From: Macrostomum lignano
Lineage: Eukaryota
Assembly: GCA_002269645.1 (NCBI GenBank)
Contig: NIVC01002932.1
Location: 1-64,000 of the forward strand
Direction of reading: 5' to 3'
DNA length: 64,000 bases
The notes under the pieces were generated by a model, which was not told the origin of the DNA, ran no database searches, and saw only the letters and a program-made list of their open reading frames with translations. A program made the position numbers and the translations under genes. Positions 57,609 through 58,166 of the stretch are shown here, one piece after another. Each line of letters begins with the position of its first letter. Position 1 is the stretch's first letter.

Positions 57609-58166
57609 CGACTTGTCCTATTAATAGTTACTGCGAGTCTGAAGCTGCACCCGTTTGAAAAATTTGATTTAAAGCAGACCAAACAGAAGCTACAGACCAG
57701 AAACCGGTTTTGCAAACTATTCCTAAGCCGACCAACAATGCTAAAGACAATTTATTCAAATGCTAAAATCCAACTTTATCCAGCAGGAAAACTAACTATA
57801 TATGGCTGTAAATCAAATTCTCAGATAGTCTCAGTTTTACGATTTATCAACGACACTATTAATTGTGTAGATTTTGATTCAGTAAAAATTCAGAGCAGTA
57901 CCTATGTCGGCTTTATTGGTCATCTTTGGCCAAAATTCGGTTTCTCTAGTCTAAAAAGATATGCAGGCTACTATTCGAATTATCTGGTTGGATACGATGC
58001 AGAAAATTTCCCACAAGCAGTTTCTGTTAGATCAGCATCAAAACCAAGGCTTTTTTGTAACATATTTTTTTCGAAAAAGTTTGTTATTATGGGCGTTCAA
58101 AACACTCATGAATTGAATAATATTCTTAACCATGTCAAGGATTTTTTAATCTCTGTTAATAACTAA
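57609..58166 (+). CDS. Divergent TATA-binding protein (TBP)-like protein with two TBP repeats
   Basis: Frame is open from acceptor ttccgttttag|CGA, 129 nt upstream of ATG 57738. LIVTASL..FDLK..RNRF..IQLYPAGKLTIYGCKS and VKIQSS..YDAENFPQ..KPRLFCNIFFSKKFVIMGV align by eye with TBP NIVSTVNL..LDLK..KRF..LIFSSGKMVCTGAKS and FKIQN..YEPELFPG..KPRIVLLIFVSGKVVLTGA. Confidence 0.78.
   Translation, partial: RLVLLIVTASLKLHPFEKFDLKQTKQKLQTRNRFCKLFLSRPTMLKTIYSNAKIQLYPAGKLTIYGCKSNSQIVSVLRFINDTINCVDFDSVKIQSSTYVGFIGHLWPKFGFSSLKRYAGYYSNYLVGYDAENFPQAVSVRSASKPRLFCNIFFSKKFVIMGVQNTHELNNILNHVKDFLISVNN

Follow-up and report, generated by a model that had tools for sequence, protein, structure and literature searches.

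A divergent TATA-binding protein in a Polinton of Macrostomum lignano, probably produced as the last exon of a neighbouring gene

A Polinton in the genome of Macrostomum lignano carries a reading frame that, we consider virtually certain, has the fold of the TATA-binding protein (TBP), and that is in all probability a functional gene of the element. The frame occupies positions 57609-58166 of the stretch of 64,000 nucleotides that was analysed (contig NIVC01002932.1, positions 1 to 64,000; hereafter the window, in which all genes, exons and motifs of the element lie on the forward strand), comprises 185 codons and ends with a TAA stop. The TBP model of PFAM matched the frame in two stretches and over the cut-off (E 2.2e-7), and a PDB sequence search returned TBP chains (best E 3e-4). 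The AF2 model of the protein (77-row alignment; pLDDT 97, pTM 0.86) is a two-repeat TBP saddle, for which the Foldseek matches (E 2e-9, TM ~0.7) were TBPs down to E 3e-6. Since cellular TBPs were present in its alignment, the model is not independent of them, whereas the PFAM match is. In VIA the model aligned with solved TBPs at Z 16.5 (rmsd 2.5 over 164 residues) and spanned residues 66-239 of yeast TBP end to end (Z ~16, 167 aligned), the best unrelated fold scoring Z 8.4. A preliminary description, made from the letters of the sequence, had noticed an open frame of 185 amino acids with two TBP-like repeats and had proposed a comparison with the TBP fold; both the frame and the fold are thus borne out. 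The frame has no start codon, however: residue 1 corresponds to residue 66 of yeast TBP, where the core starts, and no ATG occurs ahead of residue 44, while conservation is apparent from residue 1 onwards.

The columns of the four DNA-intercalating phenylalanines of yeast TBP (F99, F116, F190 and F207) are occupied by Pro42, Tyr57, Phe134 and Phe153, so that not all four are present. The preliminary description counted three Phe and one Tyr. Its Tyr (QLYPAGK) and the Phe of its motifs ENFP and NIFF indeed map to F116, F190 and F207, but the Phe of NRF (F34) is out of register with the F99 column and NRF is not kept in the sister families, which leaves a tally of two Phe, one Tyr and one Pro. 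Proline fills the F99 column in all nine group-I rows that cover it (for group I see the trees below) and in 53 of 55 wider relatives. The replacement of the conserved Asn was described correctly: both central asparagines are gone (N69 to Leu4, N159 to Ser96). The acidic C-terminal stirrup for TFIIB (yeast E186 and E188) is kept as Asp130 and Glu132, with D and E in all six families found here. Fixed or near-fixed in group I are R98, the Pro at 99, Y116, T122, T161, F190, P191, R196, N205 and F207, and the group-I proteins are basic (pI 9.1-10.5). Compared to cellular TBP (PF00352; yeast 1YTB, human 1CDW), the element protein thus shares the saddle over the whole core, F190, P191, F207, R98, R196, the acidic stirrup and the basic pI. 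It differs in its low identity (17-22%), in the replacements F99 to Pro, F116 to Tyr, N69 to Leu/Gln, N159 to Ser/Thr, L205 to Asn and V122 to Thr, and in being encoded by a mobile element, likely as a spliced exon of another gene.

The element starts at a left terminal inverted repeat of ~104 bp (53130-53233, beginning with AGTAGT), the sister copies diverging at 53127-53130. The same 104 bp are found inverted at the far end of copies C424, C753, C877 and C84; both terminal repeats are seen in C877 and C84 and the far end alone in C424 and C753. A 6-bp target duplication was recognized by eye in one of the two copies with both flanks (present in C877, absent from C84). To the left of the element lie host exons on the reverse strand (41438-48435 and 52465-52850), which we presume to resemble sestrin and a chitinase-domain protein. 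The left arm holds arrays of direct repeats (54780-55490, 53756-54010 and 53210-53278, with units of 36-38, ~60 and 23 nt, respectively), which are candidate enhancer or origin repeats. The gene order is SSB-like gene, TBP, pPolB stump, dUTPase (59708-60241; PFAM 1.5e-29), parvovirus-type PLA2 domain gene (60333-60776; PF08398, 3.4e-9), packaging ATPase (60779-61468; conserved across lineages and named from its P-loop and position, the P-loop matches being weak), penton or minor capsid protein (61526-62515; no PFAM match), adenovirus pX-like core protein (62572-63000; PF05829, 2.3e-6), a conserved Polinton ORF of 229 amino acids (63011-63700; no family above the cut-off), integrase, pVII-like and major capsid gene. 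The product of 61526-62515 we take to be the penton from its position and a likeness. The integrase gene starts at 63982-64000 and continues past the window on the contig (C2932), where the pVII-like and major capsid genes also lie; the names of these three genes are likewise assumed, by eye. Sister copies end with a protease gene, and the ORFs for integrase, ATPase, major and minor capsid protein and protease are present and conserved, the names having been assigned by eye.

As described beforehand, an SSB-like gene lies upstream of the TBP frame. Its first exon (56200-56507, from the ORF list, with an inferred start codon) is joined at 56507/56579 to a second exon (56579-57398), which encodes a domain of ~127 amino acids that is conserved in five aligned families, a basic low-complexity linker and a Ser/acidic tail. 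In the Atlas the domain scored 0.91 to a viral cluster in which 10% of the members carry DUF2738, a recognition below the mark of the tool. There was no PFAM match, no PDB sequence match and no Foldseek match at E 0.001, and a low-confidence model (pLDDT 48), in which an OB fold was sought, gave a best Z of 3.1. Whether the domain is an SSB is on these grounds an even call. The 'pPolB-N-like ORF' of the preliminary description, on the other side of the TBP frame, is the stump of a pPolB gene (58390-59457), consisting of an N-terminal part and a short C-terminal piece with an internal deletion of ~3.2 kb near 59265. It matches only residues 16-291 and 1362-1408 of the pPolB of a sister element (1426 amino acids), and copy C84 has 3,162 bp extra at the deletion point. 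The sister pPolB contains DNA_pol_B_2 (PF03175) and Endonuclease_7, and protein-primed PolB is thus present in the lineage. Because ~3.2 kb of pPolB is gone and few copies keep it, the window's copy is a non-autonomous derivative that was recently multiplied. The earlier idea of a small integrating DNA virus with its own TBP can be retained for the Polinton as such, but this copy has a deleted polymerase. Several further features were observed in this region and beyond. A G-rich low-complexity run in the N-terminal frame of pPolB (59046-59190) varies in length among copies, and the deoxynucleoside kinase (dNK) gene that sister elements possess at the place of 58166-58390 is absent from the window's family. 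The major capsid gene, beyond the window, is interrupted by a second pPolB element (C2932:66728-75423) that has a 6-bp target duplication and long inverted repeats; its ORFs showed no capsid gene, and a TBP was not found there either.

A search of the genome with the TBP protein gave 83 matches, 26 of which were full length at 99-100%. Twenty of these, the window's included, are identical at the DNA level over the gene, three have 1-3 differing sites and three have nine, although the counts are inflated by redundancy given that the host TBP itself is found on three contigs. Some TBP copies have decayed. Five sister families (B1, B2, C, D and E) carry a TBP at the same place, with 39-46% identity to that of the window, and the order in the sister elements examined is SSB-like gene, TBP, (dNK), pPolB, dUTPase, PLA2 and ATPase. 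The dN/dS ratio was 0.14-0.51 in the seven of 11 group-I pairs that allowed its computation, the other four being saturated in dS and the close pairs having few changes. The proposal to look for the gene in other copies was thus rewarded: the linkage of the TBP to the element extends to 26 full-length copies and to six families. In family E (L071, C362:549871-551289, and related copies) the TBP frame reads into the deoxynucleoside kinase, giving 460 codons from the acceptor onwards; the kinase downstream of this frame also has an ATG of its own.

The preliminary description treated the TBP frame as a self-contained gene, but it directly follows a polypyrimidine tract plus AG and is likely a last exon. 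In all six families a pyrimidine tract and AG are followed by an Arg codon that represents residue 1. No GTRAG donor was found between the stop of the SSB-like gene and this acceptor in any of the five families checked. All five do have a GTRAG donor in phase 0 within the SSB-like frame, at a conserved K-x-L / V-S position that in intact copies lies 42-50 codons ahead of the stop of that frame. In the window this predicted donor is GTGAGTA (57267-57273), and the corresponding alternative intron would span 342 nt (57267-57608). Among 19 loci from six families, which were picked for an intact acceptor, the donor was found at the homologous site in 18, the sole miss being a decayed copy. The background rate of this encoding, taken from the Val-Ser pairs in long frames of the elements, is 19 of 75, and the chance of a donor in five independent families would be ~1 in 1,000. 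The peptide that precedes the donor, PPAKIL, is in register with the N-terminus of the unspliced TBP of a second Polinton lineage (lineage II; PPATAL-RVTNLV). Considering the missing start codon, the conserved acceptor and the conserved in-frame upstream donor, we think it quite probable that the TBP frame is the last exon of a cis-spliced form of the SSB-like gene, with a predicted joint at 57266/57609. Other upstream donors in phase 0, such as that of a Met-His-Gln mini-exon in families D and E, were discarded as they are not common to all families. Family D would not need the splice, as an ATG in frame precedes its acceptor by 11 codons. pPolB and dUTPase also begin at or near acceptor-like CAG sites (58310-58320 and 59735-59746 of the window), and in families B2 and C (L045, L048) the conserved pPolB sequence starts right at AG.

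Contigs from four of 24 listed sequencing runs, guessed to be RNA, were mapped onto the element. The first intron of the SSB-like gene (71 nt, GT..AG, 56508-56578) was removed, with the joint 56507/56579, in contigs of three of these four runs (X5, X6 and X7, from three studies), which indicates that the element is transcribed and that the host spliceosome acts on the transcript. Neither the joint 57266/57609 nor a loose end at 57609 occurred in the contigs of the four runs; as contigs drop rare variants, this does not show that the joint is absent. Part of the TBP exon was without cover in one run, and two contigs crossed the predicted acceptor unspliced (X5 57177-59050 and X6 57552-58917). 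None of 7,998 candidates was a longer, fused form of the TBP, which is weak evidence by the grading of the tool.

A candidate promoter motif was found in front of the genes in the second half of the element. TATAAGC occurs at 60312-60318 (21 nt before the first ATG of PLA2), 61475-61481 (51 nt before the penton ATG), 62518-62524 (54 nt before the pX-like ATG), 62913-62919 (98 nt before the 229-aa ORF) and 63749-63755 (233 nt before the integrase ATG). One copy of the window's family has TATAAG, mostly as TATAAGC, on the coding strand 21-233 nt before eight of the nine genes from PLA2 to protease; none precedes the four starts that were checked in the early block. In families A, C, D and E it precedes the penton and the pX-like gene by 33-56 nt, and in four families TATAAG(C) is found ahead of most genes of the structural block. 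The coding-strand counts within that block were 8, 7, 6 and 6 against shuffle means of 1.9, 0.6, 1.3 and 1.4, and none of 200 dinucleotide shuffles reached them in any of the four families; the boundary between the early and late block was set after the motif had been seen, and the count of family C includes a local duplication. The other strand gave 1, 0, 0 and 0 and the early block 0, 2, 2 and 1. Family B fell outside the count as the copy read stops after the ATPase gene. No motif was present within 260 nt of the ATPase gene in the two families checked, and TATAAG was not enriched in three metagenomic contigs. Lineage II, which has a different TBP, shows another motif, TTAAGAA (15 against 1.2 expected). 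We consider it somewhat more likely than not that the element TBP binds TATAAGC.

TBPs turned out not to be restricted to this element. A PFAM TBP search of the genome, with 150 of 330 candidates scored, showed that most matches beyond the host TBP and TRF2 belong to lineage II, which has an ATG-started TBP and a gene with a PC4 domain. Two more lineages (III and IV, 10 kb of each read), found via the ATPase, also encode a TBP, so that all four capsid-bearing lineages sampled in the genome have one and no capsid-bearing Polinton without TBP was found among them as a control. Proline is present at the F99 column in all four (III and IV by eye). The PC4-domain protein of lineage II (L115, L126, L122; PFAM 5e-7) adds a second transcription-cofactor fold; in the same elements the TBP start is overlapped by an ORF that looks like a DEDD nuclease by eye, with no PFAM match. 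A profile search outside the genome yielded 133 proteins, of which four were close, and a second search (99 matches) added more relatives. A group of 65 rows with the signature Y-x-G-R-P separates from the cellular TBPs. Ten metagenome loci of one subfamily were fetched, and in eight of the nine read the TBP lies beside a Polinton-type protease gene, in most cases with adjoining capsid genes (by eye). In metagenomic Polintons (L156, L158, L159, L161, L162) an ORF of 220-300 amino acids overlaps the TBP start, with no PFAM family above the cut-off. A phage collection gave no match. Scans of IMG/VR yielded no confirmed locus for the TBP and none for the ATPase or capsid queries, which makes that collection uninformative on TBP. 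The TBP of this element, which the preliminary description placed outside the usual Polinton gene set, is not a one-off, considering the four lineages and the metagenomic Polinton contigs.

In a careful tree (72 rows chosen from ~145) group I was supported by 100/97 and joined to a wider group by 99/92, and the Polinton TBPs fell on one side of an unstarred branch (86/93). In a quick tree lineage II was found among archaeal-like rows, with long branches. A single origin of all Polinton TBPs may be envisaged from these trees. The host TBP and TRF2 group with the eukaryotic TBPs in both trees and the element TBP does not group with them, which answers the earlier suggestion that a phylogeny might reveal a clustering with host genes. 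The likely origin of the element TBP is an ancient capture from a cell.

On balance we lean slightly towards the Polinton TBP being a late-promoter factor that is made by cis splicing and acts at TATAAGC together with TFIIB and polymerase II of the host. The early block would be transcribed by host RNA polymerase II. Without the second splice the upstream gene would yield an SSB-like protein with an acidic tail, and with the splice (57267-57608 removed, ~517 codons in total) the tail would be replaced by the TBP domain. The saddle would then bind the minor groove of TATAAGC. The N-terminal half of TBP reads the 3' end of the TATA box. The C-terminal half of the element protein, with F190, P191 and F207, would fit the retained 5' TATA, and the N-terminal half, with Pro for F99 and Tyr for F116, the changed 3' half. 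The kept acidic stirrup (D130, E132) would recruit TFIIB and polymerase II of the host, which are invoked because no viral TFIIB or polymerase was found: none of 15 TFIIB matches in the genome lies on the contigs listed for viral TBP, and no TFIIB or zinc-ribbon family occurred in 132 further frames of five group-I elements and one group-II element, although a very divergent copy might have escaped these searches. If the upstream domain binds ssDNA, the fusion would tie the transcription of capsid genes to replicating genomes, which is the weakest step. With most of pPolB gone, the window's copy would depend on a polymerase in trans. Against a late factor speak the loss of one of the four intercalating Phe and of both Asn. 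A complex prediction of the TBP with one exon of host TFIIB, made without use of our alignment, scored 0.00 and counts neither for nor against a contact.

How the TBP frame obtains a start codon could also be explained by spliced-leader trans-splicing, by which a stand-alone TBP would be made from a host leader that ends in AUG and is in frame at the acceptor. A 25-nt piece of a published flatworm leader ending in AUG has 96 exact matches in the genome, and the leader genes agree with the Macrostomum lignano leader in passages of PMC8629364. Among the leader loci from tandem or repeated arrays 7 of 10 read ATG followed by GTAAG, as against none of the first six listed loci. Leader AUGs start flatworm proteins according to excerpts of PMC9851317, the phase-0 acceptor coincides with the beginning of the TBP core, and in five of the six families it fits the trans-acceptor motif (T/C)TNCAG given in PMC8629364 (as far as excerpted), that of the window ending in TAG. 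Yet trans-splicing would leave the conserved in-frame donor and the PPxKxL peptide unexplained, and the same excerpts state that an acceptor is mainly trans-spliced when no cis donor is present upstream. Leader trans-splicing was at one stage our lead reading and was demoted by the donor in five of five families and 18 of 19 loci; we now hold it to be improbable, though the cis and trans routes could coexist. In the same searches a repeated element (L134, L135, L142-L144) was seen that has most of the spliced-leader sequence and a different tail and is not a leader-RNA donor, and L131, L133 and L136 resemble leader-capped retrocopies.

The other alternatives to a late-promoter factor concern the role of the protein. 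The loss of F99 and of both Asn alongside the kept acidic stirrup would suit a decoy or repressor that binds TFIIB, TAFs, NC2 or Mot1 of the host or sits on host promoters, with TATAAGC being read by the host TBP; as TATAAG is a near-canonical TATA box, the host TBP might indeed read it. Still, the positions of the DNA face are near-fixed across group I, the protein is basic, and lineages with different TBPs have different upstream motifs, which makes a decoy unlikely, if marginally less so than the leader route. A service in replication or packaging, for instance by bending AT-rich termini, is hinted at by the position of the TBP in the replication block, by the predicted SSB-like fusion, by the family E frame that reads into the kinase and by the occurrence of TBP-like folds in rolling-circle initiators (Z 7.7). 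The kept acidic pair for TFIIB and the stand-alone TBPs that adjoin structural genes in lineages II and III as well as in metagenomic contigs plead against such a role, which we consider highly improbable. Finally, a TBP fold of which several copies have decayed could be a young processed copy of the host TBP or TRF2, or a passenger without function. With ~22% identity to the host TBP, the placement of host TBP and TRF2 among eukaryotic TBPs in both trees, purifying selection and a conserved gene order, the chance of this is close to negligible, and a recent capture of host TBP/TRF2 was rejected on these points.

A viral TBP mimic that reads a variant TATA at late genes has a precedent in passages of PMC12529657. 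Compared to the mimics of beta- and gammaherpesviruses as described there, the inferred model shares a viral TBP fold, a more polar DNA face, a variant TATA before structural genes and the use of host polymerase II. The KSHV mimic ORF24, following the same passages, has and requires all four Phe and both Asn, lacks the acids that bind TFIIB, binds polymerase II through an N-terminal domain of its own and acts in a complex of six proteins. In the Polinton TBP the acids are kept, F99 is lost and no such partners were detected; with Phe and Asn lost and the TFIIB acids kept, membership of the ORF24 type was dismissed. The element resembles adintoviruses, Polintons and Mavericks (PMC8502044 and PMC8097293, in excerpts) in its terminal repeats, 6-bp duplication, pPolB, PLA2 and pX-like genes and, as far as these were named by eye, in its integrase, ATPase, capsid and protease genes, and differs from them in that PLA2 and pX are separate genes here. 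The vertebrate Mavericks have eight core genes, TBP not being one of these, and no introns were seen in them, as stated in part of PMC8097293. The TBP homologues of the Nucleocytoviricota have the same fold and include the best BFVD matches (E 1e-9), at 8-17% identity. Giant viruses bring their own polymerase; no viral polymerase was found in the element. The Atlas clusters nearest to the TBP carry a viral label that few records support, and the Polinton TBP may have originated from the Nucleocytoviricota.

The preliminary description supposed that a TBP in such an element might be undescribed. No description was found, but a label 'TBP' is present in the legend of Figure 5 of PMC8502044 (Starrett 2021; preprint 10.1101/697771), in a section on non-animal datasets, for MELD viruses or related elements. 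Section 3.4 of that paper, within the portion consulted, does not discuss it, and a term search of the supplement gave no match. Term look-ups for TBP and TATA were likewise negative in the searchable parts of 10.64898/2026.10.13.758929, 10.64898/2026.06.19.733378, PMC11131425, 10.1101/2023.08.22.554363, PMC11296320, PMC11161782, PMC8097293 and 10.64898/2026.08.29.747986. Beyond the figure label the Polinton TBP is thus apparently undescribed, with figures, bioRxiv supplements, Repbase and subscription journals lying outside the search. A TBP spliced onto a neighbouring gene was not found in the literature searched, and the new parts are the predicted splice architecture and the Pro-for-Phe signature.

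The findings bear on the activation of the capsid genes in Polintons and on whether a helper virus is required for it. An own TBP with a matching promoter motif forms a directly testable set, consisting of one small protein, one heptamer and host TFIIB. Such a set would represent an independent parallel to the late transcription of herpesviruses, in an element of 15-18 kb. The replacement of Phe by Pro is a natural experiment on the bending and the reading of DNA by TBP. More tentatively, and with some doubt, many Polintons may govern their own late transcription through an ancient TBP that is specific to the family (Pro for the first Phe) and reads lineage-specific TATA variants, with TFIIB and polymerase II of the host; in the lineage of the window, alternative splicing would yield the TBP solely as the C-terminal domain of an ssDNA-binding protein, a fusion that would couple capsid transcription to strand-displacement replication.
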